From Candidatus Electrothrix sp. GW3-4 (lineage in GTDB: Bacteria > Desulfobacterota > Desulfobulbia > Desulfobulbales > Desulfobulbaceae), in NCBI RefSeq assembly GCF_037902255.1, contig NZ_CP147990.1, forward strand, positions 4,080,001 to 4,112,000: a DNA stretch of 32,000 nt, in the 5' to 3' direction. A model generated the notes under the pieces. That model saw nothing but the letters and a program-made list of their open reading frames with translations, was not told the origin of the DNA and ran no database searches. This document shows, one piece after another, positions 1 through 26,003 of this stretch. The position numbers and the translations under genes are program-made. The first letter of the stretch is position 1. Every line of letters starts with the position of its first letter.

Positions 1-531
1 ACCATCCATATCAGTTTGAGAACCAAGGGCAAACATGGCCCAGTTGCGAACATCGCCATCAGCGTCCCGACTGAGCTGGATCAGGGCAGTTATCGCTTGC
101 TCATCGTCATGACAGCTCAAGCCAAAGGTGACCCCGAATCGGACCAGCGCGTCTTCATGCAGAGCCAGCTCGACCAGCGGAGAAATGGCCCGTACATCGT
201 TGCGATGCCCTAAACTGATTGCCGCATAATGGATGACCTGATGATCAGGATCGCTGAGCAGATTGATCAGGATCTCGACCGATTCCTCATGGAATGTCCT
301 TTTCTCCCAGCCCAGCTGGGCAAGAATGTCAGCACCAACAGCACGATCTTCAGGGTCTTCACTCTCTGTCAGCTGCCTTCCCAGCTCAAACTCCTTCCAT
401 CCTCCCCGAAAATGAAGAATAGCCATGGCTTCACGGGTATCCTTATCAGAATGCATCTCCTGGCGATGGGCTTCAACCAATTCCTCTGAACTTCTCGGGT
501 CTGCTGCATACTTCCTTAATATATCTTGCAT
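1..531 (-). CDS. HEAT / PBS-lyase-like repeat protein, N-terminal 177 codons only (C-terminus lies beyond the window start)
   Basis: The minus-strand frame is open from ATG 531..529 (GAGGT 5 nt upstream) to position 1. It is missing from the ORF track because no stop lies in the window. My translation MQDILRKYAADPRSSEELVEAHRQEM... contains repeated D-x-x-V-x-x-x-A-x-x-x-LG units (DRAVGADILAQLG, HQVIHYAAISLG, DGDVRNWAMFALG). The + ORFs 16..213 and 229..489 are antisense shadows of this gene. Confidence 0.6.
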   Translation of the reverse strand, partial: MQDILRKYAADPRSSEELVEAHRQEMHSDKDTREAMAILHFRGGWKEFELGRQLTESEDPEDRAVGADILAQLGWEKRTFHEESVEILINLLSDPDHQVIHYAAISLGHRNDVRAISPLVELALHEDALVRFGVTFGLSCHDDEQAITALIQLSRDADGDVRNWAMFALGSQTDMDG

Positions 532-817
532 TAGTACCTCACACGGAGTTTAAAAAGACGTCAAGACGTAGCGGGCCTGCAACGCGAGAAAAAGACTCTG
601 TTCTGCCGGTAAATACTGATCTGCGTGGGAACCTGAGAGAGAGGTAAAGGACATAAAGAAGGATTTCAGGTTCCATACCAAAGCAAAGCTTAACCATGTT
701 GGTCGCAAAAAGTAAACAGAAACAGGTTGTTTTCCTAAAAACTCCTTCCTGAAAAGGTCATGGGCAACACGAGCTTACATACAAGAGAAGGCTGGGGATG
801 GTAAAAAGGGGAGGAGA

Positions 818-881
818 GCAACAAGAAAAGAGAGGAAAAGCGAGCAAGATGCCCAGAGGAGGAAGAGGACTCCCTGCTCGC
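818..881 (-). terminator. Weak candidate terminator after the carboxyltransferase gene
   Basis: A 7-bp stem GCGAGCA/TGCTCGC (840-846 / 875-881) encloses a large 28-nt loop. On the minus strand it is followed by the pyrimidine-rich run CTTTTCCTCTCTTTTCTT, and it starts 19 nt after the stop at 900. Confidence 0.25.
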
Positions 882-899
882 TTAGGATACGCTGCGCTG

Positions 900-2867
900 T
901 TAGTCTTCGTTGACCTCGACTTTTAAGAGCTTATCACCGACCTTGAGGGCATCGCCCACCTTAACACTGATCCTCTTCACCGTACCGCTAACCTCAGAAA
1001 GGACCGGCGTCTGCATTTTCATGGCTTCCAGTACCATAACCTGCTCGCCTTCAGCAATCTCTTGCCCTTCTTGGACATTAATCGCGCTGACATTGCCAGC
1101 AAAAGGGGCCCGGATATCGCCTGCGCTGGCCAATTCCTCAATCTCTTCCTTGGACAAGGTGACCGCTACCTGGACGCCCTGCACCACCTCTGGCTCAAAG
1201 ACATAGACCCGTTCATGGTGATCTACATTCAGGTAGACATTGGTCTCCCCCTCGTCGGTCTTCTGCACCGGTCCGACCTCCAGCAAATGCTCCTTGCCGG
1301 AATGATCCCGAAAGGTGATGCTCTCGCCCAGATCAAAGCCGCCCTGGCGAAGGAAGATGGACGGCGGCAGCACATAGGACTTACCAAAGTCTTCCTCGAA
1401 TTTAAAAAAGTTGACCGCATCATTGGGATGCTGGAGATAGAGCACCAGCTGCTGCTCTGTGGGCTCAGACCCGAGGCGCTCTGTCAGGGTCGCACGCTCC
1501 TGCTCGATATCCATGTCCTCAATATCATCAATGCCCCCTTCTTCTTCCAGGATGGTCCGCCAGTCCGGGCCAAAGACCTTTTCAAAAATCCAGTCTTCCG
1601 GCCGGTAGAAGGGGAACGGGCCGTACTTGCCCAGGAGGAGATTTTTCAGGTCCCCGGACGGTGATTCATAGCGCCCATTCTGGACATTGGAAACCGCTGT
1701 GGTCCAGAGGATCTGAGAACCAGGAGTCACGCTCCAGTAGTTGCCCAATTCCTTCTGCACCTTGGGCAGCTCCTTGTGAAGAATGTCCGGCATCTTGTCC
1801 AGGAAGCCACCCTTCACGGCCTGCTCCAGGCTGGAGCCCATGGCACCGCCAGGCAGTTTATGGATCTGCACGGTGGGCTGGAATCCCTTGATCTGGGACT
1901 CAAACTGGGCATAGTGCTGACGTTCATCCCGGATAATATCAGAGGACTGGATCACCGCCTCTTCATCAATACTCACTGCGGTCTTCCCCAGGTCCTTCAG
2001 GGTCTGGATAACGGTCAGGATGGGCGGAGGACCGTAAAAACCGGTAAAGGAGTGATCAGAGGCATCAACGATCTTGGCCCCGTTCATGACCGCCTCGACG
2101 ATACGGCCTACATCGTTGCCATCGGTATTATGGCCATGGTAATGGATGATGATATCGGGATAGGCCTGCTTGATGGCATCCACCAGCTCACCGATGCGGC
2201 GCGGGGTGCCCAAGCCGCCGTGGTTCTTGATGCAGAGGGTGATCTCCTCGCCAGTGACATCCAGGATATCCTGGACCTTCTTGACATAGTACTCGTTGGT
2301 ATGCTCTGGTCCGGTGGAGAAACAGATGCAGGGCTCATTGATCTTGCCAGCCTTGGCCACTTCTTCAAACACGGCCTGCATGTTGGGAATATGGTTCATG
2401 AAGTCAAAGGTCCGCCAGACATCAACGTACTTGGCAAACTCCCGAACCGTAAAGCGGATCACGTTCTGTGGGTACGGGCGGTAGCCGAACAGGTTCACGC
2501 CCCGACAGAGGGTCTGGAACATGGTGTTGGGCATGGCCTCGCGCAGCAATTCCAGCTTGAGAAAGGGATCCACCTGCTTGCGCAGGATATCCACATGCAC
2601 CGAGGCACCACCGGTGATCTCCAAAGAAAAATATCCAGCTGCCTCCCTGGCCTTGGCCGCCATCAAATCGGTGTGCAGCAGGATCCTGTTTTTATAATCG
2701 GACTGGGACATGTCCCGGGCCGTATTGGTAATATAATAGCCGTCAGCCTCACGCACTGCCTTCAGCACTGCTGCTGTCTCCATATCCTGGGTAATTCGTG
2801 TCATAACTCTGTATCCGTGAAGTGTTCGTTGATTATCCGTTTTCTTTCGATCCCCTGCTCGGGTCAT
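900..2867 (-). CDS. Biotin-dependent carboxylase, carboxyltransferase + C-terminal biotin-carrier subunit (pyruvate carboxylase subunit B / oxaloacetate decarboxylase alpha / 2-oxoglutarate carboxylase large-subunit type)
   Basis: Features seen: an HMGL-like TIM-barrel region (HYHGHNTDG His cluster, IKNHGG Lys), a PYC_OADA-like segment (KLPGGAMGSSLEQ...VTPGSQILW), and a C-terminal biotinyl domain with EAMKMQ. It lies directly downstream of the biotin carboxylase gene. An alternative start is ATG 2804 (MTRITQDMETAAV...). Confidence 0.9.
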   Translation of the reverse strand: MTRAGDRKKTDNQRTLHGYRVMTRITQDMETAAVLKAVREADGYYITNTARDMSQSDYKNRILLHTDLMAAKAREAAGYFSLEITGGASVHVDILRKQVDPFLKLELLREAMPNTMFQTLCRGVNLFGYRPYPQNVIRFTVREFAKYVDVWRTFDFMNHIPNMQAVFEEVAKAGKINEPCICFSTGPEHTNEYYVKKVQDILDVTGEEITLCIKNHGGLGTPRRIGELVDAIKQAYPDIIIHYHGHNTDGNDVGRIVEAVMNGAKIVDASDHSFTGFYGPPPILTVIQTLKDLGKTAVSIDEEAVIQSSDIIRDERQHYAQFESQIKGFQPTVQIHKLPGGAMGSSLEQAVKGGFLDKMPDILHKELPKVQKELGNYWSVTPGSQILWTTAVSNVQNGRYESPSGDLKNLLLGKYGPFPFYRPEDWIFEKVFGPDWRTILEEEGGIDDIEDMDIEQERATLTERLGSEPTEQQLVLYLQHPNDAVNFFKFEEDFGKSYVLPPSIFLRQGGFDLGESITFRDHSGKEHLLEVGPVQKTDEGETNVYLNVDHHERVYVFEPEVVQGVQVAVTLSKEEIEELASAGDIRAPFAGNVSAINVQEGQEIAEGEQVMVLEAMKMQTPVLSEVSGTVKRISVKVGDALKVGDKLLKVEVNED

Positions 2868-2884
2868 TCCGCCGATGGCAAGGA

Positions 2885-4327
2885 TTACGCGGCATAGGTA
2901 TTTTCACCTTTTTGATGAATCTCGGCGATGAGGCGGGCCAGTTTATTGACTTCACTGGCATCCTCTTCGTAATCCAATAAATTCTCATGGGTATCAAGAA
3001 AAGAGGTATCAAAATGGCCTTCTTGAAAATCAGGCTCTTGCAGCAGACGGAGAAAAAAAGGAATAGTTGTCTTGGGTCCGCTGATAACAAAGTTATTCAG
3101 GCAACGTCTGAGCCGATCCACGGTTTCGTGCCAGGACCAACCAAACACGGTCAACTTGACCAGCAAAGAGTCATAGACTTGGGGAATGGTATAGCCTTGG
3201 TAGCAAAAGCCGTCCAGGCGCACACCATAGCCGCCGGGTGAACGATAAACCCGCACGGTCTTGCCGCCCTCAGGCATGAAGTTATTCTTGGGGTCTTCAG
3301 CGTTAATGCGCAACTCCACCGCATGACCACGCAGCTGGACATCTTCTTGGTTAAAGAGCAGCTCTTTGCCCAGGGCGAGTTTGATCTGGGTCCGGACAAT
3401 ATCAATACCGGTGATCATCTCGGAGACGGTGTGCTCCACCTGGAGACGGGTGTTGATCTCCATGAAGTAATAGCTGCCGTCGCTGTCAAAGAGGAACTCC
3501 ACCGTGCCTGCATTGAAATAATTGGCCGCCTTGGCTGCCTGCACAGCGGTCTGGCTGATCTCTTCCTGCTGCTCCGGGCTCAGCTGGAAGGCTGGAGCGA
3601 TCTCAACCAGTTTCTGGTTACGACGCTGAATAGAACAGTCGCGGGTCCCGAGATGAACGGTATGGCCAGTCTGATCAGCAATGACCTGGACCTCAATATG
3701 CTTGGGCTTAACCACCACCTTTTCCAGGTAGACGGAATCATCGTTAAATGCGGCCTGGGCCTCTGTGCGGGCAATCCCGTACTGCTCCTCCAGCTCTTTC
3801 TCATTCTCGACCCGGCGGATACCGCGCCCACCACCACCAGAGGTTGCTTTGAGCATGATGGGATAACCGTATTTCCGGCCAAACGCCCTGGCCTCTTCCA
3901 GGCCTTCCTCACCGGCCTTCAGATTATCCGTACCCGGAACCATGGGGATACCGGCTTCAGCCATAATCCTACGGGCCATGACCTTATTGCCCAACTTGTT
4001 GATAGTATCTGAAGAAGGACCTATGAAGACAATACCTGCTTCTTCACAGGCCTTGGCAAAATCGGCATTTTCTGCCAAAAATCCATAGCCCGGATGGATC
4101 GCTGTTGCCCCGGTCTTTTGAGCGGCCTTAACAACCTTTTCGATGTTCAAATAATCACAGCGCGGACCGTCACCAAGCCAGAGAGCTTCATCGGCAATTC
4201 GTATATGTTTAGAATCATTATCAGGCGTTTCATAAATAGCTACAGCTTCATAATTTAATTCCTGGATAGCCCGGATAATCCGGATAGCTATTTCCCCCCG
4301 GTTAGCAACAAGTATTTTTGTTTTCAC
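2885..4327 (-). CDS. Biotin carboxylase subunit (pyruvate carboxylase subunit A / AccC type)
   Basis: MKTKILVANRGEIAIRIIRA at the N-terminus, an ATP-grasp region (GYPIMLKATSGGGGRGIR, EMNTRLQVEH-like FMEINTRLQVEHTV), 480 aa, and a stop 17 nt before the carboxyltransferase ORF. Confidence 0.92.
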   Translation of the reverse strand: MKTKILVANRGEIAIRIIRAIQELNYEAVAIYETPDNDSKHIRIADEALWLGDGPRCDYLNIEKVVKAAQKTGATAIHPGYGFLAENADFAKACEEAGIVFIGPSSDTINKLGNKVMARRIMAEAGIPMVPGTDNLKAGEEGLEEARAFGRKYGYPIMLKATSGGGGRGIRRVENEKELEEQYGIARTEAQAAFNDDSVYLEKVVVKPKHIEVQVIADQTGHTVHLGTRDCSIQRRNQKLVEIAPAFQLSPEQQEEISQTAVQAAKAANYFNAGTVEFLFDSDGSYYFMEINTRLQVEHTVSEMITGIDIVRTQIKLALGKELLFNQEDVQLRGHAVELRINAEDPKNNFMPEGGKTVRVYRSPGGYGVRLDGFCYQGYTIPQVYDSLLVKLTVFGWSWHETVDRLRRCLNNFVISGPKTTIPFFLRLLQEPDFQEGHFDTSFLDTHENLLDYEEDASEVNKLARLIAEIHQKGENTYAA

Positions 4328-4699
4328 TGGTTTAGCCTTTCTAAGATTTTTGATTAATGTGATGGCAGGTCAAGTTGAATAAAGCTGGATACTGCAATCG
4401 TATTTTTGAAAAAAATATGAGGGAAGGTTGTTATGATAACAGAAATTCTTCTTTTAGGCAAGTGAAAGGTCTGAAACGAGCAAGGGTATATCGCTTAAAT
4501 ATTGTTGGAACAGCAGGTTGGATGAAATGCTCCTATGAGTACACCACAAACCCTTTATGGTGTATAATATCCCCTGATGATGGCTAACGGCCGATCTATT
4601 CCCCCTGGCCAACCATATCTTTTTCCCCTTGCCTTTTCAGTCTACTAACCACCTTGGACAAGATAAGAAACTCGATCATTAACGTTTTGAGGATTGCTG

Positions 4700-5911
4700 A
4701 TGAATAAAAAGAGACAGGATAAGCCATTGAACACCCTGAGCAATGCACTCCTTATCTATTTTATTTTTATTGTACTTATTATCACGTTAATTCCATTCAA
4801 CTTTCAGATTCCAAATCAGATCGAGATTTCTTGGCATATAGGCCCCTCGGATACCATAACAAATATTTTTCTTTTTATTCCCCTTGGCTTTCTCTTCAGA
4901 CTCATACACCGCCACAAACATACCCTATATTCTCTCCCCACATTTTTCTTCGGTGCTTTCTTAAGCATCACCATTGAAATAAGTCAAATTTTCTCCCCGA
5001 GCCGCTACACTAATCCTATAGATGTGCTTACGAATGGATTTGGGGCCTGGTTGGGAGCCATTGCATTGAATATGCTGAGCAAAAAAATACGGGAGAAAGA
5101 GAGGACGAAAATTTTTGATTTAGAATTACCCCTGCTAGGACAAGTGTATCTCCTTATTCCCCTGCTATGGCTGAATGGACTTGCGCTGGGAGACGATCCG
5201 ACTCGCTTGCTCTTAATATTCCTGTTAGGCCTCTCGGGATCGTTTGTCCTCGGAATGATCTGGAAAAATCGTTGGATGCAGCATAAGACCTTTTCTCCCA
5301 AAAGATTATCTCTCATCACAGTCTGCTGGTTTATGATCGGGGTCCTTCCTTCATTTTTCCGATACCCCCTGCAGATCATGGGACAAGTCGTTCTGATAGG
5401 TATTTTTACGATGTTACTTATGCAAATTTTACAAAAAATTACTCTCAAAGAACGGCGGATAGAACAGCGGACACTTCAGATCGTATTCCCCCTGTATATC
5501 TTTTATCTGGCCTTAGCCACCTATTGGTCCAATCTCCCGGCAAGAGGAAACATCCATGACGTTTTCCAGGGAGTGGCTTTCAACAAAAGAATTGAAGTAA
5601 TCTTCCTTGCGGTTGAACTGGTCGCGTCCTACACCTTGATGGGCTATATGATTGCGGGGTTAAGAGGCAGACAAAAAGACTCTCAAGGATATACGTTCGG
5701 ACTGGCATTTTTCATAGCCTTAACGACCTCTCTTCTCACAGATTTAACAAATCCCTCCTCATCCATTGCAGATATAAATATCTCCCGAACAATTCTGGTG
5801 GGCTCCATGAGTCTCTATGGCGCTCTGATCTATAGCCTACAGCTCAACGCCATACAACGATTACGAAAAAAGCCTCACAAAGACTATAATCACGCCAACA
5901 ACCAACTCTAA
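4700..5911 (+). CDS. VanZ-like N-terminal domain fused to a ~270-aa polytopic membrane domain
   Basis: VanZ hallmarks are present: NIFLFIPLGFLF, SITIEISQIF.PSR..NPIDVLTNGFGAWLGA. Many hydrophobic segments follow them. ATG 4700 has GAGGA 6 nt upstream, whereas the track ORF begins at TTG 4694. Confidence 0.7.
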   Translation: MNKKRQDKPLNTLSNALLIYFIFIVLIITLIPFNFQIPNQIEISWHIGPSDTITNIFLFIPLGFLFRLIHRHKHTLYSLPTFFFGAFLSITIEISQIFSPSRYTNPIDVLTNGFGAWLGAIALNMLSKKIREKERTKIFDLELPLLGQVYLLIPLLWLNGLALGDDPTRLLLIFLLGLSGSFVLGMIWKNRWMQHKTFSPKRLSLITVCWFMIGVLPSFFRYPLQIMGQVVLIGIFTMLLMQILQKITLKERRIEQRTLQIVFPLYIFYLALATYWSNLPARGNIHDVFQGVAFNKRIEVIFLAVELVASYTLMGYMIAGLRGRQKDSQGYTFGLAFFIALTTSLLTDLTNPSSSIADINISRTILVGSMSLYGALIYSLQLNAIQRLRKKPHKDYNHANNQL

Positions 5912-8105: not shown

Positions 8106-9068
8106 CTATGCCGCGCCCAAAAAGGCGCTGTTTTTTTGAATCAACAAGTGCAATTCCTGGACTTTTTTCCCGGCCTCGCCACACCCTTCATCAAATTCTA
8201 AGGCCCGTTTATACATAATCAACGCACGGGTGTACCACTGACCGCTCATATAACTTTCACCAGCTGCACAGAATCCCTGAGCTGGAGTACCTGAGAACAT
8301 ATCAGCAAAGACATCGTCAAGGGGCTCTCCCCAAAGATCTTCCACAATATCTTCCTGTTCCACCAGAAAACGAACCAGGAGAAAATTATCTGCAAGCCCG
8401 GACAGCATAGTGCGCAGCATATTATGCGTCTGGCCAAAAAGAAAGGCCAACTGCTCCATCTGCTGCATAACATCAACCGCAACGCGCTTGATAAGGTTCT
8501 TGCGATCCATAGCCTGTGCCAGGCGAGAAACAGGAAGATTTTGTGACGGATATCCGTTCTCACAGGCCGCTTTTATCTGGCGATTTTTAAAGGCCGCACT
8601 CCCGTAATTATTGAGAATATGAACATCCTCCCTGAGTCGTATGGCTTCGTGAAAGATGGATCCCATGAGCCAATCAACCAGCGACCCTTCGACATTTTCT
8701 CCATGCTCACCTTCCGGCCAGACACGACGACAGAGCTCCCGCAAAGTCCAGAGCGACCCCTTATCGGCCTCTTCCCCAATCATCCAATTCAACCGATCCC
8801 AGATCCTGCAATGGGCATTCTCACCTTGATGGTGGAGTAAATAGCAACTGCTGCCCATAGCCGAGCCCCGGCAAGCGCAATAGGAATGATACAGTTTATG
8901 AAACGAATAGGTCAGGGTAAAAAAATCTGCAAAGAATTGGCGAACAAAAAAATTTCGCTGCTGGTCAAACCAGCTCTTTCGCTGCCGACGACGCTCACCT
9001 GATCCTCTCCTCTCTGCCCCATCCCCAGAGGTTGCTCTATAACGGGCTTTTTTTTCTGCCGTGTTCAT
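8106..9068 (-). CDS. Hypothetical protein (320 aa) between glgA and gap
   Basis: A long ORF that fills the gap between two same-strand genes: the glgA stop is 25 nt upstream and gap starts 130 nt downstream. It has an Arg/Lys-rich N-terminus and no motif I recognise. There is no clear SD at ATG 9068, so the start is uncertain. Confidence 0.6.
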   Translation of the reverse strand: MNTAEKKARYRATSGDGAERRGSGERRRQRKSWFDQQRNFFVRQFFADFFTLTYSFHKLYHSYCACRGSAMGSSCYLLHHQGENAHCRIWDRLNWMIGEEADKGSLWTLRELCRRVWPEGEHGENVEGSLVDWLMGSIFHEAIRLREDVHILNNYGSAAFKNRQIKAACENGYPSQNLPVSRLAQAMDRKNLIKRVAVDVMQQMEQLAFLFGQTHNMLRTMLSGLADNFLLVRFLVEQEDIVEDLWGEPLDDVFADMFSGTPAQGFCAAGESYMSGQWYTRALIMYKRALEFDEGCGEAGKKVQELHLLIQKNSAFLGAA

Positions 9069-11824: not shown

Positions 11825-12146
11825 GAAGATACTCTCATCAGTTGCAGATTTTCAGGGATAGCGAGCTGCTTTTTTCGCTCTTTTTCGACATTCCACGCCG
11901 AATTTTGCAGTCACCGGATATGTTTTAATCCCTTTTCCCAATGATGACAAGCGATTTGAGCGTAATCAAAATTGCCCTATAATGTGGAAAGGATATTTCG
12001 AGGAAAGAGAGAAAGGCCTCCTCTGGCAGAGAACCGGAAGAAACAGGCTCCGCCTCCAAAGGAGGTGGGAAGGAAGATAAAGGCGTTTTCTCAGAAAACG
12101 AGGAACTCAGCAGGATAGCCTCTCACTTCAGGAAAGGCCAACCAAA

Positions 12147-14498
12147 TTACCAGATAGCCCTTAACCCTGCTGACTTACGCACATGATCAATTCTACGTTC
12201 CAGTTCCACCCGCCAATTGGCATGGATACGGGCCGCAGAAGGCGCAATCAACTCAGGCAGGCCATAGACCAGGCGATCGGCAGCACGGCTGGCCTCAATA
12301 ACCGCCTCAATGGAGCGTGCCCCAAATTTATACTCACCAAGAAGCAAACGGAGCAGGAGCCCTGAACTTTTTCGGGCTGCTTTTTTCCAATGAGTTTGCA
12401 TCTGGTGGGCAATGATCAAAGCGCGCTTATGCAGAATCCTGCGCAACTCCTCCAGATCCTCCTCAGTGGCTGACTCCTGCAGCAGATGGGCAGGTATCTC
12501 AATGCCGTCAATGTCCAGAACCACTCGTAGGCGACTCATAAAATCAGGAATTTTCAACGTCTTGGATCTCTTCAGCTGTTCAGAATTCTCAGGGGAGAGC
12601 AGGTCTTCCATCCCCTCCCAACTTGCCTTAACCCCGCCTGCAAAGACAAAGATAGCCCGGCCAATATGATAGGGGATGCCATGAACATAGGTTACCCCAT
12701 CCTGCATAGAGGGCAGAAAAAAGCGAAGATAGCCAAATTCATCCCTGTTATATCGACAGTCGAACTCATCCCAAAAGGCTATAGGAACCCGCCCCCTGGC
12801 TACCGAGGCCCTGATAGGATCAATAGCGGAATTGATCTCGTCAGGGCTGGCAAATTGAGTAAGATTAAACTCAAAAAAATCAAAAGGATCACCGTCATAA
12901 TGACGAGCAATCTCATTAGCAACCTGCTTCACAGCAAAAGATTTCCCAGATCCCGGAGGACCAAAAATTCCAATACAGAGGGGGCGCAGGACCGCCTCTT
13001 TGGAGACATAGGAATCCATGACCTGATGGAGAGTGATAACCGGATCAATTTCCGCTGGATCTGTGGTCCGCAGGTGACCGATTTGAAACATCGGGAGATG
13101 ATCAAAGCCGGTACCGCGATTGACCTCTTCCTTCAGGTAGTGTAGCACAGAAATAATGGTATCAATATGACCAGCATATCGAACCCCATCACTCTGCAGG
13201 TTACAATGCGACTCATACTTGCGGTGAAAAAAGGAACGCAAGGCCTTTTTCTTTTCCTCTCCCCAGGACTGGCTGGCCACCAGAGTTAAATTTTTTTCAA
13301 ATTCCGTAGAAGTATTCGGTAGTTCGACAAAATTAGGGTCCCGCCTGATCACCTCAGGAGAGGCACAAGGACAATCATTCTGACAGTTGGAAGCCTGATC
13401 CTGCCAAGCAAGTCGCATGCGATCTCCACGCTTCTCACCACATTCATTGACCGAGCATGGCCAGTCAGCCGGGCACACTGAGCCGAAATCAAGTTCTGGC
13501 AACTTAAGTTGGCCATCAAAATGATAGCCGTTGTCATTGAGTATTTTCCAGTTGACCAACACCTGCCTTGAAAAGGCAAAGAAGCAATTACGACAAAAGT
13601 CAAGGCAGTTGAAGCGAAAGATATTCATGGTCAGCATTGCGGTGACCATCGTGTCATAGCAGGGGACAGAGCCACGTTTTTTAGATGAACTCTTTTTCGG
13701 CAACATGCCCTTACGATATCGAAAAAAGGTGCCACCAGGCCCAACATAAAGAATGGCATGGGGAAACATCTCCACCACGATATGACAGAGGAAACGCTTG
13801 GTCAGCGGATCCCAGAGCCCCACCTCACTGGTCTTGAGAGCCCGCAGACACATGGCCACAATACTTTCCCAGGTGACGGCCGAGTCCATCTCCATCCGGG
13901 TGGTCTCCAGATCAGAAAGTCGACAGAACAACGTAAAATTCTTTCCAAGCCGCCTGGCCCATTGCTGCCAATGGGCAACAGAGATCCCCATGGCGATGCA
14001 CCACATATCAGGATTTAAGGCCATCATATCGTCGCAGACCTGCGGTGGGACACCGGAGTCGTCTATCAAAACCATCCCCGTGTTATTCCCCACAATGGAA
14101 CAGTCATGCTCGCTGATCACAAAGGCAGAAGACTTTTTCAGACGTTCTTCAGAGGGCAGCAGCTGACTCACCATAAACCAACCATCCTGGTAACCTTCTC
14201 TGCCTTTTTTTTGTCGCTTGAAAATTTGATACACTTGCTTTTCAGTCCCGTAAGAAAGGGAGTCAACTTGAGGTGTGAGACCTGATTCAGCAAGATAGGC
14301 ATTTAACCATGTCAGACATTGCTCTAATCTTCCCTTCTCAACAGTCACCGGGCCAGCAAGAAGATCGATATTATCACCCGGATTATAGCCATAGGCGGGC
14401 AAGCTACCTTCCTGGAGCAGGCTCACCTCCTTAACCGGAAGATTAGTGGTCTTTACATTGGAACCGAGGATGAGAATTTTTGAACTATTGGCGACCAT
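12147..14498 (-). CDS. Orphan multidomain AAA+ ATPase (unrecognised ~500-aa N-terminal region including a 10-Cys module; C-terminal classical AAA+ module)
   Basis: Walker A GPPGSGKS is at aa 513-520 (nt 12939-12962, checked against the DNA). Also present: Walker B-like VPIAFWDEFD, a sensor-1-like FVFAGG, the Arg-containing DFMSRLRVV, and a lid-like GARSIEAVIEASRAA. An in-frame TAG 4 codons upstream of ATG 14498 fixes the earliest possible start. Confidence 0.85.
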   Translation of the reverse strand: MVANSSKILILGSNVKTTNLPVKEVSLLQEGSLPAYGYNPGDNIDLLAGPVTVEKGRLEQCLTWLNAYLAESGLTPQVDSLSYGTEKQVYQIFKRQKKGREGYQDGWFMVSQLLPSEERLKKSSAFVISEHDCSIVGNNTGMVLIDDSGVPPQVCDDMMALNPDMWCIAMGISVAHWQQWARRLGKNFTLFCRLSDLETTRMEMDSAVTWESIVAMCLRALKTSEVGLWDPLTKRFLCHIVVEMFPHAILYVGPGGTFFRYRKGMLPKKSSSKKRGSVPCYDTMVTAMLTMNIFRFNCLDFCRNCFFAFSRQVLVNWKILNDNGYHFDGQLKLPELDFGSVCPADWPCSVNECGEKRGDRMRLAWQDQASNCQNDCPCASPEVIRRDPNFVELPNTSTEFEKNLTLVASQSWGEEKKKALRSFFHRKYESHCNLQSDGVRYAGHIDTIISVLHYLKEEVNRGTGFDHLPMFQIGHLRTTDPAEIDPVITLHQVMDSYVSKEAVLRPLCIGIFGPPGSGKSFAVKQVANEIARHYDGDPFDFFEFNLTQFASPDEINSAIDPIRASVARGRVPIAFWDEFDCRYNRDEFGYLRFFLPSMQDGVTYVHGIPYHIGRAIFVFAGGVKASWEGMEDLLSPENSEQLKRSKTLKIPDFMSRLRVVLDIDGIEIPAHLLQESATEEDLEELRRILHKRALIIAHQMQTHWKKAARKSSGLLLRLLLGEYKFGARSIEAVIEASRAADRLVYGLPELIAPSAARIHANWRVELERRIDHVRKSAGLRAIW

Positions 14499-14532
14499 AT
14501 TTACTGTCTATAAAGATTTACTGTCTATAAAG
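14499..14532. repeat. Perfect tandem 17-bp duplication abutting the AAA+ start codon
   Basis: ATTTACTGTCTATAAAG occurs twice (14499-14515 and 14516-14532). On the gene strand this reads CTTTATAGACAGTAAAT x2, directly followed by ATG. Confidence 0.95.
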
Positions 14533-14606: not shown

Positions 14607-14648
14607 ATGAAAGTACCGACGACTCCTTGGAGTCGTCGGTACTTTCAT
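14607..14648. repeat. 42-bp perfect palindrome (20-bp arms, 2-nt centre); hairpin/operator or + strand terminator
   Basis: ATGAAAGTACCGACGACTCC-TT-GGAGTCGTCGGTACTTTCAT. On the + strand it is followed by GTTTTGTTGT. Confidence 0.9.
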
Positions 14649-14864: not shown

Positions 14865-14957
14865 TTAGAGGAGTTCGGTTTTTTTCAGCAACCTTATTGC
14901 AACCTGATAGGAAACAACTATCACAGCGACCCACGATAATAATAAAAATGCATTCAT
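14865..14957 (-). CDS. Candidate 30-aa hydrophobic peptide downstream of cydA (below the ORF-track size cutoff)
   Basis: My translation is MNAFLLLSWVAVIVVSYQVAIRLLKKTELL*: one predicted TM helix with a basic C-terminus. AGAGG lies about 10 nt upstream of the ATG. The ORF lies about 140 nt beyond the cydA stop, past a hairpin. Confidence 0.3.
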   Translation of the reverse strand: MNAFLLLSWVAVIVVSYQVAIRLLKKTELL

Positions 14958-15040
14958 AATCACTATACCTCTGTATAACTTTTTTTGTTACAAAAAAGTA
15001 GCAAACTCGACATTACCCTTACGTAGCAATACAGTTAAGA

Positions 15041-15061
15041 CCACCAGCCAAAAGCTGGTGG
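15041..15061 (-). terminator. Candidate terminator hairpin after cydA
   Basis: CCACCAGC-loop-GCTGGTGG forms an 8-bp stem 36 nt after the cydA stop. On the minus strand it is followed by TCTTAACTGTATT, a weak U-tract. Confidence 0.4.
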
Positions 15062-15096
15062 GGTGAAATCAACAGCTCAAATCATCTGCAAAATAA

Positions 15097-16632
15097 TTAC
15101 GCCTTTTCTGGTCCGAGACTAATCTGCTTCAGCATAATACTGATCTCGGCTATCAGCAGAACCGTGAACAGCGCCAGAAAAAGGAAAAAGGTTGTGGCAA
15201 CAGAGCCAGCTGGCAGATTGGTTCGGGCCACAGTGACGGGTAAGAGCTCTTGAATCGCCCAAGGCTGTCGCCCTACTTCAGCAACAATCCAGCCTGTCAT
15301 CTGGGCTATCATGCCGAAAAAAAACATTACAGCACCGCCAGCAAGGAGCCAACGTTGTTTCAACAAGGTGCCCTGCAGAGAAAAGAAGAGGAAGCCGAGA
15401 AAGACCAAGGGAAAAAAGGTACCCAAGGCGATCATAATGTGAAAGGCATTAAAGGTCAGCCCCACAGGCGGAACCGCATCTTCTGGTTTCTCCAGAAAAC
15501 CATACCCCATATAGTCTTTATTTCTTTCAAAACCTGCTAAGGCCGTAGTGGCCCCTGCTTCGTCACCTGCCTCCTTGGCCTTTTTATAGAGCTCCAGCTG
15601 GGTCAGGGCCATCTTCCCTTTAACCATCTTTTCCTTGGACCCCATAATATTTTCTTCGCTATTCCCGTAGACCAGATCCTCCAGTCCCGGAACAAAGGAC
15701 CCTATGGAACGATTAGCCAATAAAGAGAGGAGGCCGGGCACCTTGACAACAAAGGAAAAGGGCTCCTGGTCATCGCCAACCTTTTTTGCGCTGTTCAGGA
15801 CACCAAAGCCAATAAGGTCCGCGCCCTTTTCTCCCTGATACAGCCCTTCCATTGCAGCAAGTTTCATGGGTTGATGACGGGCGACCTCGTAGGCAGACTC
15901 ATCACCTGTAAAGGCGACAAAGCCAGAAGCGAACAGGCCGAAAATCGAGGCAACCATGATGGATCGCTTGGCCATCTTTTCATGGCGCCCCTTGAGCAGG
16001 TACCAGGAGGAAATGGAGATCACAAAGAGGGCAGAGTAGAGCATGGCAGAACTGGTGGCGTGGGTAAACTTGGACACCGCCACCGGATTAAACACCACAT
16101 CGGCAAAATTCTGCATTTCAAACCGTGCGGAATCTGGGTTGAATGCCTGCCCTACGGGGTGCTGCATCCAGCCATTGGCCACCAGGATCCAGACAGCGGA
16201 CAAGTTGCTGCCCACCGCGACCATCCAGGTGGAAAAGAGATGAAATCTTTTAGAGACTCGGTTCCAGCCGAAAAACATCACGGCAAAGAAGGTCGCTTCG
16301 CAGAAAAAGGCAAAAATACCTTCGATAGCAAGCGGTGCACCAAAGATATCACCCACCATCCAGGAGTAATTAGACCAGTTGGTCCCGAACTCAAATTCGA
16401 GAATAATACCGGTTGCCACCCCAATGGCAAAGTTGATACCGAACAGACGCATCCAGAATTTAGTAAGATGCTTCCATTCTTCACTCCCGGTCTTGATATA
16501 GATGGTGTGAAAAAAGGCAATAAGCCACGTCATTCCCAAAGTAAGCGGAACAAAGATCCAATGGTACAAGGCCGTCATAGCAAATTGAGCCCGGGCCCAG
16601 TTCACCGTGCTCAGGTCTACATTCTCAATCAT
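15097..16632 (-). CDS. cydA: Cytochrome bd-type quinol oxidase subunit I
   Basis: ARAQFAMTALYHWIFVPLTLG, GINFAIGVATGIILEFEFGTNWSNYS and GDIFGAPLAIEGIFAFFCEATF. There is an AAGGAG RBS. The start overlaps the stop of the upstream small ORF (ATGATTGA). Confidence 0.95.
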   Translation of the reverse strand: MIENVDLSTVNWARAQFAMTALYHWIFVPLTLGMTWLIAFFHTIYIKTGSEEWKHLTKFWMRLFGINFAIGVATGIILEFEFGTNWSNYSWMVGDIFGAPLAIEGIFAFFCEATFFAVMFFGWNRVSKRFHLFSTWMVAVGSNLSAVWILVANGWMQHPVGQAFNPDSARFEMQNFADVVFNPVAVSKFTHATSSAMLYSALFVISISSWYLLKGRHEKMAKRSIMVASIFGLFASGFVAFTGDESAYEVARHQPMKLAAMEGLYQGEKGADLIGFGVLNSAKKVGDDQEPFSFVVKVPGLLSLLANRSIGSFVPGLEDLVYGNSEENIMGSKEKMVKGKMALTQLELYKKAKEAGDEAGATTALAGFERNKDYMGYGFLEKPEDAVPPVGLTFNAFHIMIALGTFFPLVFLGFLFFSLQGTLLKQRWLLAGGAVMFFFGMIAQMTGWIVAEVGRQPWAIQELLPVTVARTNLPAGSVATTFFLFLALFTVLLIAEISIMLKQISLGPEKA

Positions 16633-16894
16633 TCTTGTTCTCCTTGTCGTGTAAAAAAAGACTGTTTGCCTGCTTGGAGCTGATCAGCTCACTGAGCACA
16701 TAATCCGCCCGTTCTTCGTCGGTGGTAAACCGAGTCCCGAGAAAATCCTCAAAGAAAAAGAGCTTCAGAACAGCAAACATGATAATCAATTTGATACAGA
16801 TAATTTTCCATAGGGTCTTGCCAACGGTCATGTTGCGAAAGCCATCACGATAAAATCGGTAGGCTTCCTGAAATACGCTCTGGTGCTCCTTCAC
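16625..16894 (-). CDS. Small membrane protein, DUF4492-like (family identity from memory)
   Basis: The 89-aa sequence YRFYRDGFRNMTVGKTLWKIICIKLIIMFAVLKLFFF resembles the small proteins encoded next to cydA in Bacteroidota. The GTG start has GGGGAAGGA upstream. It sits 12 nt after the cydB stop and overlaps the cydA start by 8 nt. Confidence 0.6.
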   Translation of the reverse strand: MKEHQSVFQEAYRFYRDGFRNMTVGKTLWKIICIKLIIMFAVLKLFFFEDFLGTRFTTDEERADYVLSELISSKQANSLFLHDKENKND

Positions 16895-16906
16895 AGGTCC
16901 TTCCCC

Positions 16907-18055
16907 TTAATACATTTCACCGGCCTCAGGGTTTGCCAGTTCCCCAACAGAGAGTTTTTTTCCATCCATTGCCTGCCATACATAGGCGATGTAGGCCAAG
17001 ACAAGGGGAATAGCCAAGGCGACCCAGGTCATGGTTTGCAGGGTGAAGAGGGTTGAAGAGGCATTATGGATAGTCAGGCTGGATTGTAAATCCACCTTGG
17101 AGGGATAAAAGGCCGTGTTATGAAAGCCAGCCAGCCCAAAAACGGTCATTCCGACCAGGAAGCTGCCCAAACCACCCAACCAGACACCACTCTTTTGGGT
17201 CGTTTGGGCTGCCAGCAAGACACCGGCAATCACCAAAACCAAGCCAATAGCCAGAGAACCAGCCAGGGCGGGGACCTCTATCAAGTTTATAAGATATTTT
17301 CGGGAAAGAAGTTCTATCTGACCGGCCTCATTCACCGCATATCCCTGCATCAGGAGAATCATGACCAGGAAACAGGCCAGAAAAGGGAGGCTGATATAAA
17401 AATTCTTCAACACAGCCTGACGTAGGCGCCCTTCCAGCTCTTCGCTTCCTTTAAAATCAATATTATTGATTAAATACATAGCCCCGAGTACACGGGAGTT
17501 AAAAACCAAAAAAAGCCCCAAGGCCAGATTGAAGATGGAGAAGGCCGCTTCAAGTCCGCGCAACGGGTTGGTCCAGCTCATCAGGTTATACCTGTCCAAG
17601 GTGAAATTCGAGCCAGTAAAGAAGGTGCCTACCGCTGCCCCGATAAGGAGGACTCCGACAGAACCATTGACAAAGAGAAAAACATCAAAGACCTTGGTCC
17701 CCAAGACATTATTCGATTTGCTGCGATACTCATAACTGACCGCCTGGAGAACAAAGGTGAACAGAATGAGCATCCACACCCAATATGCTCCACCAAATGA
17801 CGTCGCGTAAAATTTTGGAAACGCAGCGAACATAGCACCGCCAAAGGTGACAAGGGTGGTAAAGGTGAGCTCCCATTTTCTGCCCAGTGAATTGGCAATA
17901 AGACTTTTCTCTTTGTCTGTTTTTGCCAGCTGAGCAAGTAAGGTCTGCCCCCCCTGCACAAAAAAGAGAAAGATCAGGAGCGATCCAAGCACAGAGCAAA
18001 TAAGCCACCAGAGTTCTTGCAACTGGGCAAGTGTTGCGGTTCCAATCCAATTCAT
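16907..18055 (-). CDS. cydB: Cytochrome bd-type quinol oxidase subunit II
   Basis: LQELWWLICSVLGSLLIF, FAAFPKFYATSFGGAYWVWMLILFTFVLQAVSYEYRSK and the C-terminal SLTIHNASSTLFTLQTMTWVALAIPLVLAY parallel E. coli CydB. There is a GAGGAA RBS. Confidence 0.9.
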   Translation of the reverse strand: MNWIGTATLAQLQELWWLICSVLGSLLIFLFFVQGGQTLLAQLAKTDKEKSLIANSLGRKWELTFTTLVTFGGAMFAAFPKFYATSFGGAYWVWMLILFTFVLQAVSYEYRSKSNNVLGTKVFDVFLFVNGSVGVLLIGAAVGTFFTGSNFTLDRYNLMSWTNPLRGLEAAFSIFNLALGLFLVFNSRVLGAMYLINNIDFKGSEELEGRLRQAVLKNFYISLPFLACFLVMILLMQGYAVNEAGQIELLSRKYLINLIEVPALAGSLAIGLVLVIAGVLLAAQTTQKSGVWLGGLGSFLVGMTVFGLAGFHNTAFYPSKVDLQSSLTIHNASSTLFTLQTMTWVALAIPLVLAYIAYVWQAMDGKKLSVGELANPEAGEMY

Positions 18056-18191
18056 GAAAAGTTCCTCAAAGGTTGAAGGGATGGAAAAGGGTTGATACTG
18101 TATAGTTCAAGCATCCTTAAGAGAAGAAAGATGCCAATTATCTGCTGGCGAGAAAACAAAAATACCTTTCTTCAAATGTGACCTTTTTAAG

Positions 18192-18219
18192 GATATAGGA
18201 ATTTTTTTTTCTATGTCAA
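18192..18219 (-). promoter_or_regulatory. Candidate sigma70-type promoter for the cyd operon
   Basis: On the minus strand: TTGACA, a 16-nt spacer, then TATATC, about 135 nt upstream of the cydB ATG in an A+T-rich divergent region. Confidence 0.3.
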
Positions 18220-18386
18220 TGTGTAATATCAGTAACATCTTCTTTTTCTAAGTAACTCCCAGATCACGCCGCACGTAAGAATCTTTTTTAATTAGTATTT
18301 ACATGCAAAAAAATGCTTTTTTATGCGTTTACTTTTTATACATCCGACAAAAACACCCTTTCTTATTCCCTCAGAAAGAAAGGGTA

Positions 18387-18415
18387 TTGACAGGAGAAAG
18401 AATATACCTTTTAAT
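18387..18415 (+). promoter_or_regulatory. Candidate sigma70-type promoter for the MepK-like gene
   Basis: TTGACA (18387-18392), a 17-nt spacer, then TTTAAT (18410-18415). A 9-bp perfect stem-loop, CCCTTTCTT/AAGAAAGGG (18356-18384), precedes it. Confidence 0.35.
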
Positions 18416-18506
18416 AAATATATTGCGTATCATTTCAAACCGTTTGAATACAAATTATGTGGTCATCAAAATACCTTGCACAAAAACATAACCAAAGGAG
18501 TAGATT

Positions 18507-19064
18507 ATGAATAGACGTTCTTTTCTCGCCTTGGGAGCAAAGGCTGCTGTCGGGCTTTGCCTTGCCCAAGCTGCTCCAGCTTGGGCGAGCATACCCTCAT
18601 CTCGATCCGAACTGTCCCAAAAAAGAAAGACCCTCTCGTTTTATCATACCCACACCCGTGAACGACTCGATATAGCCTATGCCAAATCAGGAGAATATGA
18701 CCTGGAGGCCTTAGCCCAAATAAACACCTATCTCCGTGATTTTCGCACCTCAGAAATTCATTCTATTGATCCGGCTGTCCTGGATATTCTCTGGACAATA
18801 CAGCAAAAAATGTGCTGCAATAGTACATATGAAGTTATCTCCGGCTATCGTTCGCCGAAAACCAACCAACAACTTCGCAAAAAGAGTAACGGGGTAGCAA
18901 AACGCAGTCTCCATATGAAAGGTCAGGCAATTGACGTGCGCATTACCGGAGAAAAAACCAAGACCGTCCGAGATTGCGCAATCTCACTCAAATCCGGTGG
19001 CGTAGGATATTATGCAAAATCAAATTTTGTTCATATCGATACCGGTCGAGTCCGCTCCTGGTAA
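18507..19064 (+). CDS. Tat-exported DUF882 / peptidase M15A family protein (YcbK/MepK-like murein endopeptidase)
   Basis: The twin-arginine signal is MNRRSFLALGAKAAVGLCLAQAAPAWA. Also present: SGYRSPKTNQ, RSLHMKGQAIDVRI and FVHIDTGRVRSW. AAGGAG lies 7 nt upstream. Confidence 0.85.
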   Translation: MNRRSFLALGAKAAVGLCLAQAAPAWASIPSSRSELSQKRKTLSFYHTHTRERLDIAYAKSGEYDLEALAQINTYLRDFRTSEIHSIDPAVLDILWTIQQKMCCNSTYEVISGYRSPKTNQQLRKKSNGVAKRSLHMKGQAIDVRITGEKTKTVRDCAISLKSGGVGYYAKSNFVHIDTGRVRSW

Positions 19065-24949: not shown

Positions 24950-25360
24950 CCCTTCATCATCTCACCTCCTGTCTCAATCAAGACAAGGGCATTTCTCACG
25001 CAATCCGCACAGCCGCCATAACCTACCGCTGTCATCATTGTAGATATATCCCAGGGTAGCGGTGTACCCATTGACCGGACGATGACGGCCAGGGTGCCAA
25101 CACAGATGACCTTCAACCTAAACTACTCCCGTTGTTTGGTCTGAATTACGAGCGATGTTTTTTTCAATCATCACTGGATAAGTGATCCAAACTACGCTCG
25201 ATGAATTTTTGGAAAGACGGGGGGTGCTATGGGAATTGGAGCGAGGGAATCATTGTGAGGTGAACCTGTGCCCCTGCTTCTATCTGTATTGCTGTGTGGT
25301 TTGAAAAGATACTATGGCACACCGAGCAGTAATTGGTTGTAATTATTTATATTAAATTTA

Positions 25361-25434
25361 TAACTGGTTACAAACAATGCGGCTGCAACACTGTGATGTA
25401 AATAAAATGCATAGATAACTGATTACAAAAAACT
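25361..25434 (+). repeat. Pair of 19-bp direct repeats in the A+T-rich island
   Basis: TAACTGGTTACAAACAATG (25361-25379) and TAACTGATTACAAAAAACT (25416-25434). A weaker relative, TTGGTTGTAATTATTT, is at 25333-25348. Confidence 0.7.
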
Positions 25435-25605
25435 CAATCGTAATACTGGAGTGTAAAGAAAATATTCAGCATAGTGCTATGCAGTATATAATACATTAAA
25501 ATTAGAGTAAAAAATAGAAAAAGACAAGAACAACAACGTCAGGTTATAACACAGAAAAAACGGAAAAGTTCTGTTTTATCACCACTCGTTAGCAGAACAA
25601 TCTGT

Positions 25606-25712
25606 TTACAGGAACAATTTATGCTACGGATTATACAAAAATGATATTTACTTTACAAAATAACTCGCTTACAGGGCAGCAATTTACATTGCTGATTGTA
25701 CAAAAATGATAT
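25606..25712 (+). repeat. Pair of ~43-bp direct repeats immediately upstream of the small ORF
   Basis: TTACAGGAACAATTTATGCTACGGATTATACAAAAATGATAT (25606-25647) and TTACAGGGCAGCAATTTACATTGCTGATTGTACAAAAATGATAT (25669-25712). The two share identical 5' (TTACAGG) and 3' (TACAAAAATGATAT) ends. Confidence 0.8.
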
Positions 25713-25757
25713 CTTGAGGGGTTAATTAAACCTGGAAGGCCATAGGAGAGCTGAGAA

Positions 25758-26003
25758 ATGTTGAACTCAATAAGCGAAGAAGAATTTAAATCAAAACTCA
25801 TTGCATTAGCCTATGCCTGCCCTCTTGAACAAGAGTCTCCCAATTGTCCTTTAAAAAAGGTCAGAGAGAAAAATTTTTCTGACAAAATAAAATGGGTTAA
25901 CAGCCTGTCATTGCCTACAAAAAAAACAATATATAAATATCATTTGTTATGCATTTCCAAGAATAAGAAGAAACAAGAGGTGGTCCCTGTCAGTCGCTCT
26001 TAA
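25758..26003 (+). CDS. Small orphan protein, 81 aa, Lys-rich with 4 Cys, in the A+T-rich island
   Basis: AGGAG lies 9 nt upstream of the ATG. It is the only ORF of 60 aa or more in about 1.2 kb, and I recognise no family. The sequence is MLNSISEEEFKSKLIALAYACPLEQESPNCPLKKVREK...YHLLCISKNKKKQ. Confidence 0.45.
   Translation: MLNSISEEEFKSKLIALAYACPLEQESPNCPLKKVREKNFSDKIKWVNSLSLPTKKTIYKYHLLCISKNKKKQEVVPVSRS

Follow-up and report, generated by a model that had tools for sequence, protein, structure and literature searches.

A Desulfobulbales-restricted AAA+ ATPase family with a diverged ribokinase-fold N-terminal domain is linked to the cytochrome bd cluster

The present analysis concerns a stretch of 32,000 nucleotides (nt) of the genome of Candidatus Electrothrix sp. 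GW3-4 (assembly GCF_037902255.1, contig NZ_CP147990.1, positions 4,080,001 to 4,112,000 of the forward strand), hereafter the window, and within it a minus-strand gene at 12147-14498 that encodes an ATPase of 783 amino acids (aa). The gene belongs to a family restricted to Desulfobulbales-type bacteria, that is to one order, and its ancestral place is that of the last gene of a cytochrome bd cluster. The protein itself begins with a ribokinase/PfkB-fold domain that is highly diverged (aa 1 to ~335) and continues through a helical linker into an AAA+ module. We propose, at a probability of about 0.4, that this ATPase may serve as an ATP-driven accessory factor of a terminal-oxidase and oxygen-defence module.

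Relatives of the gene were found in 201 of the 185,579 species genomes scanned, and the gene context was read in the best 80 loci. Neighbours were identified by tblastn and by unbiased clustering of the flanking open reading frames (ORFs), and synteny was counted in those non-cable loci whose flanks reach 3.5 kb or more on either side. Among the 36 assessable non-cable Desulfobulbales loci, 32 carry cydA/cydB adjacent to the ATPase gene and on the same strand, usually in the order Rrf2 regulator, DUF4492, cydA, cydB, a 30-aa cydX-like ORF and then the ATPase gene, the identities of Rrf2, DUF4492, cydA and cydB being confirmed by Pfam and NCBIfam. Furthermore, with X standing for the ATPase gene, the linkage survives three arrangements, Rrf2-DUF4492-cydA-cydB-X, cydB-Rrf2-DUF4492-cydA-X and AhpC-X-DUF4492-cydA-cydB, the last of these with gaps of 3-98 bp. 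At two loci where cyd is absent (L048 and L055), the neighbours are a haem-copper oxidase subunit I and AhpC. The first-pass annotation, made by a model from the letters of the window, had presented the gene as stand-alone and monocistronic, with unrelated units on either side, but its upstream cyd genes are a conserved partner. Hence the gene is not an orphan, since it is a conserved member of a cytochrome bd/oxygen-defence cluster.

In the window, the cyd genes are found as follows:
15097..16632, minus strand: cydA, cytochrome bd subunit I (Pfam, expectation value (E) 2.4e-159)
16625..16894, minus strand: DUF4492 small membrane protein (Pfam PF14899, E 1e-30), located directly before cydA in 37 loci
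16907..18055, minus strand: cydB, cytochrome bd subunit II (Pfam, E 4e-67)

This order, cydB, DUF4492, cydA, puts subunit II before subunit I and corresponds to the cydB-Rrf2-DUF4492-cydA-X arrangement minus Rrf2. Desulfobulbus-type loci (L009, L013, L014 and L016) have the window's cyd order plus Rrf2 between cydB and DUF4492. The order in the window also matches the published 'CydBSA' cluster that is carried by Ca. Electrothrix antwerpensis (PMC11247825), and DUF4492 is probably the 'CydS' of that cluster.

The 783-aa ORF represents a real gene, since 265 homologues turned up among the 5.8 billion proteins searched, the best 120 of which were inspected and are every one full length (744-784 aa), with 59-92% identity to the window protein. 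Named sources among these 120 are Ca. Electrothrix, Ca. Electronema, Desulfobulbaceae, Desulfocapsa and Thermodesulfobacteriota, and the window protein is closest to the Electrothrix proteins. Identity follows taxonomy, with 82-92% for Electrothrix, ~70% for Electronema and Desulfobulbus and ~63% for Desulfocapsa, the whole family forms a single 50%-identity cluster and the GC content is normal. The best 80 loci are likewise of Desulfobulbales type, apart from several that carry generic labels and three whose records bear the label Desulfobacteraceae, Desulfoarculaceae or Desulfobacterales. The suggestion of the first-pass annotation that the protein is undescribed was borne out: database names are limited to 'AAA family ATPase', 'ATP-binding protein', 'ATPase' and 'hypothetical protein', neither Pfam nor NCBIfam has a model for the N-terminus and no describing paper was found. 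Nothing was found in the literature on an AAA+ protein linked to bd or on DUF4492 in connection with cytochrome bd, and the gene goes unmentioned in papers on the cyd cluster or on cable-bacterial oxygen reduction (PMC10030654, PMC11247825, bioRxiv 10.64898/2026.01.20.700514).

The gene is an ATG-started open frame without interruption. The coordinates and residue numbers of the first-pass annotation are right given the minus strand, and its motifs were all located (KILILGSNV at 7-15, GPPGSGKS at 513-520, FWDEFD at 575-580, FVFAGG at 617-622 and SRLR at 655-658). Conservation was read from an alignment of the window protein with the 120 homologues (121 sequences). The following features were assigned:
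12147..14498, minus strand: whole coding sequence, 783 aa plus stop (ORF list and translation), comprising PfkB-fold domain, Cys-rich loop, helical linker and AAA+ module
13494..14498, minus strand: ribokinase/PfkB-fold domain, aa 1 to ~335 (AlphaFold2 model, Foldseek, invariant residues)
13353..13481, minus strand: Cys-rich variable loop, aa 340-382, with an Electrothrix-specific insertion of ~30 aa (model confidence, gaps, Cys pattern)
13089..13352, minus strand: helical linker, aa 383-470, with conserved DPxF..LP and KKKALRSFF blocks (conservation; helices in the AlphaFold2 model)
12150..13088, minus strand: AAA+ ATPase module, aa ~471-783 (Pfam PF00004, hhalign)
12939..12962, minus strand: Walker A GPPGSGKS, aa 513-520, K519 invariant (alignment, motif check)
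12759..12776, minus strand: Walker B FWDEFD, aa 575-580, followed by invariant C581 (alignment, motif check)
12525..12536, minus strand: SRLR, aa 655-658, candidate arginine-finger region, invariant in the 121 sequences and aligned by hhalign with IPEFIGRLPVV of ClpX
12084..12100, minus strand: terminator-like hairpin, 47 nt past the stop codon (consensus scan only)
No transmembrane segment is predicted in the 783-aa protein (highest 19-residue Kyte-Doolittle mean 1.38), and it is predicted to be soluble and cytoplasmic.

An AlphaFold2 model of aa 1-470, built from a 23-sequence alignment, reached a predicted local distance difference test score (pLDDT) of 74.9 and a predicted template modelling score (pTM) of 0.76. 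Compared with the PDB by Foldseek, it gave 175 matches at E of at most 1e-3. Each of the 50 best is a sugar kinase of the ribokinase/PfkB family (probability 1.0, E 4e-8 to 2e-6), and they include ribokinases, HldA, tagatose-6-phosphate kinase and Pfk-2, with ~10% identity over ~350 columns and target-normalised template modelling scores of 0.45-0.55. From this model, aa 1 to ~335 are predicted with confidence to adopt a ribokinase-like fold. The faint PfkB resemblance pointed out by the first-pass annotation is thus confirmed at the level of the fold (Foldseek on the AlphaFold model), without support at the level of sequence. Indeed, the first ~500 aa have no match in Pfam, NCBIfam, PADLOC or PDB sequences, Pfam PfkB (PF00294) does not match and a PDB search with the family profile does not retrieve any PfkB chain. 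Moreover, when 1.84 billion cluster representatives were searched exhaustively by HMMER with a profile of the N-terminus, one full-length representative and 24 short fragments were recovered and no outside relative, and at the sequence level the domain is confined to this ATPase family.

Against four Escherichia coli PfkB kinases, hhalign gave a non-significant local match (E 0.099, the E values lying at 0.1-0.27). In the best local alignment, itself non-significant, the catalytic Asp of GAGD-SMV is matched by the invariant D282 (PCYD-TMV), P279-C280-Y281 stand in for the GAG anion hole and the KILILGSN strand is aligned with the LVVLGSIN strand of ribokinase. The NxxE and N-terminal GG motifs could not be placed with confidence, the candidates SDLE (195-198) and G56-R57 coming from reading only. 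The invariant residues of the domain include G12, S13, G37, N39, G41, D42, G56, R57, D146, D147, D196, E198, E203, D205, E243 and D282, and the many acidic or polar ones among them (D42, D146, D147, D196, E198, E203, D205, E243, D282) suggest that a pocket is preserved. Compared with ribokinase/PfkB kinases such as RbsK and PfkB of E. coli, LacC of S. aureus and HldA of B. cenocepacia, the window protein is alike in overall fold, including the long lid beta-strands, and its D282 may equal their catalytic Asp; it differs from them by its ~10% identity, by PCY in place of GAG, by NxxE and GG motifs that are not identifiable and by the fused AAA+ module.

The C-terminal module is assigned to AAA+ on several lines. 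Pfam AAA (PF00004) scores 26.5-27.9 bits on the window protein for a gathering cut-off of 21.2, over the stretch from Walker A to Walker B only, and matches 16 of the 16 family members tested (best E 2e-6). K519, D577/E578, R656/R658 and R728 are invariant in the 121 sequences, the finger and sensor-2 roles of the conserved Arg being assigned by ClpX alignment and reading, not by structure. With its catalytic residues intact, the ATPase looks functional. hhalign against E. coli proteins gave probabilities of 78% for RavA, 67% for FtsH, 65% for Lon, 53% for ClpX and 12% for HslU, the E values for the first four (2e-5 to 1.4e-4) being marginal and similar across clades. The RavA alignment includes FEYLMTRFSTPEEV against FEFNLTQFASPDEI, and the longest one, of 248 columns, is with ClpX and includes IPEFIGRLPVV against IPDFMSRLRVV. 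Other Pfam models remained weaker: bpMoxR gave 19.5-21 bits on the window protein for a cut-off of 27 and was sub-threshold in 16 of 16 members (best E 1.9e-6), Torsin matched 16 of 16 members under its gathering score (best E 7e-5) and AAA_5 reached E 0.006 at best. The AlphaFold2 model of aa 440-783 is poor (pLDDT 42.8), from an alignment that is shallow and 83% identical, and its Foldseek matches are weak and mostly AAA+ (best E 3.5e-3), TorsinA, ClpX and Skd3 among them. AAA+ membership is supported, and hhalign could not separate the clades.

The first-pass annotation had called this a classical-clade AAA+ module, and the AAA+ part of that claim stands on PF00004 and hhalign, while the 'classical' part is not supported. 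Classical AAA proteins are marked by a second region of homology that holds R-x-G-R arginines and a sensor-1 Asn/Thr, by a pore loop of the aromatic-hydrophobic-Gly type and by the lack of a sensor-2 Arg. In the window protein, FtsH scores no better than RavA or Lon, no aromatic pore-loop motif was found by reading, the sensor-1 position reads AGG, and an invariant GAR (726-728) stands where classical AAA proteins (FtsH, p97, proteasomal ATPases) have no Arg. By reading, this GAR resembles the sensor-2 GAR of ClpX, although hhalign did not align the two. PDB profile matches to Cdc48 and Mpa are at P-loop level only. A P-loop small-molecule kinase was also considered in place of an AAA+ module and rejected, as its NCBIfam and PDB matches are weak and confined to the P-loop whereas PF00004 is above threshold and the AAA+ hhalign alignments are long.

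The region upstream of the gene, 598 bp long, had been taken for an unusual 600-bp region of its own. It contains the following elements:
14865..14957, minus strand: conserved 30-aa hydrophobic ORF (MNAFLLLSWVAVIVVSYQVAIRLLKKTELL), cydX-like by position (55 loci; translation checked)
14607..14648, no strand: perfect inverted repeat of 20 bp around a 2-nt loop, located 108 nt before the start codon and within the spacer that separates the cydX-like ORF from the ATPase gene
14499..14532, no strand assigned: exact 17-bp tandem duplication (ATTTACTGTCTATAAAG, two copies, given on the plus strand) abutting the ATG (sequence inspection)
The 30-aa ORF lies between cyd and the ATPase gene in 55 loci, always travels with cydAB and encodes a single helix. 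It belongs to cyd, since it follows the changes in cydA/cydB order (standing after cydB where the cyd order is inverted) and is absent where cyd is absent. It matches no known CydX/CydS small-subunit family in Pfam or NCBIfam, and the label cydX-like rests on its size, its hydrophobicity and its constant position after cydA/cydB. It is probably an unannotated small subunit of the bd oxidase, distinct from DUF4492. The spacer that follows it is usually 30-120 nt long, and no terminator-like site was seen in that of L044. The hairpin occurs once in the window and in none of the 83 loci compared; its T-run lies on the plus strand, where no gene that it could terminate is obvious. A Shine-Dalgarno sequence is not seen before the ATG, and the 17-bp duplication there could reflect a leaderless or short-leader transcript, or a recent duplication.

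In the accessory-factor reading, the ATPase would be co-transcribed with cyd and would mature, maintain or remodel a client in the terminal-oxidase/oxygen-defence machinery, and the PfkB-fold domain would replace a separate adaptor as a ligand- or client-binding module. The synteny count, the linkage that resists rearrangement, the Rrf2 regulator, the usually short spacer and the intact ATPase motifs are consistent with it, and RavA as best AAA+ match together with the sub-threshold bpMoxR signal may be counted in its favour. AAA+ maturation factors encoded beside respiratory or metallo-enzymes provide a precedent (PMC9976466, PMC13036017, PMC3471820, PMC3893208). The 'dedicated remodelling chaperone' that the first-pass annotation had offered as one option is plausible.

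The closest working analogues are MoxR-class factors, namely NorQ/NorD for cNOR, CoxD for CO dehydrogenase, CbbQ/CbbO for Rubisco and RavA/ViaA with respiratory complexes. The likeness lies in a single AAA+ module genetically linked to a respiratory or redox enzyme, in RavA being the best hhalign match and in the same proposed role; in contrast, the window family has no VWA partner, leaves the MoxR Pfam models (AAA_3, AAA_5, bpMoxR) below threshold and carries a 470-aa N-terminal extension with a PfkB fold. We know of no MoxR protein with such an extension, nor of an AAA+ factor for a bd-type oxidase. In E. coli, the accessory system for cytochrome bd assembly is CydDC, a membrane ABC exporter, besides which no dedicated accessory factor for bd oxidases is known to us. 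CydDC is comparable in that the ATPase would also exert an ATP-dependent accessory function for cytochrome bd, but the window protein is predicted to be soluble and is of unrelated architecture, and no homology between the two was seen. As for the HCLR-clade AAA+ proteins (ClpX, Lon, ClpB-D2, Torsin), the longest hhalign alignment (ClpX), the Torsin Pfam matches and the weak Foldseek matches to TorsinA, ClpX and Skd3 point towards them, but the scores, marginal in themselves, do not exceed those for other clades, and the family lacks both the GYVG pore-1 loop and a protease partner.

Several observations weigh against the accessory-factor reading, and the gene context that speaks for it is circumstantial. 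Published closed genomes of cable bacteria are reported to be without complete cytochrome bd (PMC10030654; bioRxiv 10.64898/2026.01.20.700514), with the exception of Ca. E. antwerpensis (PMC11247825). Cable bacteria of this kind nevertheless retain the ATPase gene at 70-92% identity, including the closed genomes L003 and L010, and cyd lies near it in none of the nine assessable cable-bacterial loci (other Electrothrix and Electronema). Since these bacteria keep the gene, the client cannot be canonical CydAB alone, and it would need to be broader than, or different from, canonical bd. Compared with window positions ~15000-18275, the cyd-less Electrothrix loci L002, L003, L004 and L005 are without a segment of ~3.3 kb (cydB-DUF4492-cydA): similarity spans the M15 peptidase gene and ~230 nt beyond it and resumes at the start of the cydX-like ORF, of which a remnant of 47-101 nt is kept, and by tblastn no cyd pseudogene remnant other than this stretch of DNA was found there. 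Given that Desulfobulbus relatives share the arrangement of the window, the parsimonious view is that cyd was deleted in most cable bacteria and the ATPase gene kept. Furthermore, no VWA-type protein was found among the conserved neighbours (Rrf2, DUF4492, cydA, cydB, cydX-like ORF, AhpC, Hpt, hybrid kinase, lipoprotein). The hhalign alignment with ClpX shows no counterpart of its GYVG/aromatic pore loop, which makes a threading-type unfolding activity doubtful. Finally, the spacer between the cydX-like ORF and the ATPase gene is unusually long in the window (366 nt), and with the strong hairpin it contains, the gene could be transcribed separately there.

We regard as doubtful the more specific proposal that the family is an assembly or repair factor for bd-type oxygen reductases, the cable-bacterial CydA-homologue included, with the sugar-kinase fold as its cofactor- or client-binding module. 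As separate observations, no CydA-like fused cytochrome was found within 8 kb of the ATPase gene in cable-bacterial loci. Desulfocapsa-type loci (L043, L044, L047, L049 etc.) encode at ~500-4100, on the opposite strand, a CydA-like protein of ~847 aa fused to a multihaem cytochrome c domain, which lies with a 356-aa membrane partner divergently upstream of Rrf2-cyd and resembles the 'CydA homologue' discussed for cable bacteria.

Among the rival explanations, the protein could be a regulatory or sensory switch, in which the PfkB-fold domain would bind a metabolite (sugar phosphate, nucleoside or nucleotide) reporting the redox or energy state and the AAA+ module, switched by nucleotide, would feed a phosphorelay or cyd regulation and would not remodel an oxidase. 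The downstream neighbours lend themselves to this. In 8-10 Desulfocapsa-type loci the next gene downstream, on the ATPase strand and after a gap of 8-217 bp, encodes an Hpt phosphotransfer protein of ~125 aa (e.g. L041, 10132-10512), and in Electronema-type loci the same place is taken, with a gap of 0-149 bp, by a hybrid histidine kinase of ~985 aa (L010, 10266-13223; L012, 10415-13372). The Rrf2 gene in the cluster, the retention of the gene in cable bacteria without cydAB and the lack of an evident pore loop would also fit. However, each signalling neighbour is limited to one lineage and may represent a single event, these genomes abound in hybrid kinases (another one lies 6 kb away in the window) and the protein itself has no DNA-binding or receiver domain, so that we hold a switch to be unlikely. 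A bifunctional enzyme has a similarly slim chance. Its N-domain would have stayed a ribokinase-superfamily kinase for small molecules, joined to a P-loop NTPase, and would make or recycle a metabolite needed on oxygen exposure. The confident fold match, the placing of D282 on the catalytic Asp and of KILILGSN on the ribokinase strand in the best local hhalign, and the many invariant acidic residues are what an active kinase would lead one to expect; against it stand the hhalign E values of 0.1-0.27, which are not significant, the missing Pfam PfkB match, the absence of kinase relatives from the profile search, the replacement of the GAG anion hole by P-C-Y and the NxxE and GG motifs that are not identifiable.

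A core function exerted through a Zn or Fe-S site in the Cys cluster of aa 298-378 is improbable. The first-pass annotation had counted 10 Cys in this segment and had taken them to suggest a Zn or Fe-S site. The count within these 81 residues is nine, 10 being reached only if C280 is added. Eight Cys, a C-x3-C-P-C motif among them, are conserved in every Electrothrix sequence, and the loop of Electronema is shorter, with four Cys, which would be in keeping with a metalloprotein; other Desulfobulbales, however, have one or two Cys. Four of the nine are carried by an insertion (aa ~352-382) that is absent from more than 50% of the homologues, and C353, C372, C376 and C378 are present in 1-4% of the aligned sequences. 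C348 (98%) is the sole Cys of the segment conserved family-wide, C302 being partly kept (61%), and the segment is the least confident part of the AlphaFold2 model (pLDDT <50). Because it is absent outside cable bacteria, the cluster cannot be the core function of the family; it appears to be a cable-bacterium-specific elaboration of a variable loop, which may bind metal in that lineage. Less probable still is a reading put forward in the first-pass annotation, in which the ATPase would work alone in stress or anti-phage defence and carry an orphan effector domain. A large single protein joining an NTPase to an unrecognised N-terminus, with weak STAND and KAP NTPase Pfam matches at the P-loop, does recall such systems, but PADLOC yields noise only, namely mad8 (E 8e-4) and TRIP13 (E 0.05), both over the Walker A region alone. 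The synteny with a respiratory operon, the identity that tracks taxonomy, the normal GC content and the single 50%-identity cluster, unlike what is seen for fast-evolving defence genes, argue in the same direction. By the annotation's own measure, the confident N-terminal structure match and the conserved synteny largely refute a stress- or defence-type module.

Other observations were made in the window and around the family. A predicted lipoprotein of ~167 aa with conserved Cys and Trp and no Pfam match lies convergently after the ATPase gene in 27 loci (e.g. L013, 10425-10922; L036, 10247-10816). In the window, the GAPDH gene and a gene for a glycogen-synthase-like GT5 protein flank a 320-aa ORF at 8106-9068 on the minus strand, which matches nothing in Pfam or NCBIfam and is kept at the same position in Electrothrix L005 and L006. 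Patches of low GC content (0.38-0.41 for ~0.50 in the window) are found at 4000-5500, 17500-19000 and 25000-26000, the second of which takes in the beginning of cydB and the intergenic stretch on the side of the M15 peptidase gene. No Rfam RNA family was detected across the whole window.

What is new here is an enzyme-linked AAA+ accessory ATPase, if our proposal holds, with an unprecedented, sequence-orphan ribokinase-fold module; no description was found of an AAA+ motor joined to a ribokinase fold so diverged that its sequence no longer reveals it. Cytochrome bd enables sulfate reducers and sulfur disproportionators to survive oxygen, and how cable bacteria reduce oxygen is a standing question in the field. 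The strong conservation of the family within one order and its tie to the bd operon across three rearrangements make it a concrete candidate for a bd accessory factor. Should it prove to act on bd-type oxygen reductases, it would be the first AAA+ chaperone known for cytochrome bd and would give a handle on the oxygen-reducing machinery of cable bacteria and of 'anaerobic' Desulfobulbales, while the retention of the gene after the loss of cydAB suggests a more general role in cable-bacterial oxygen physiology.

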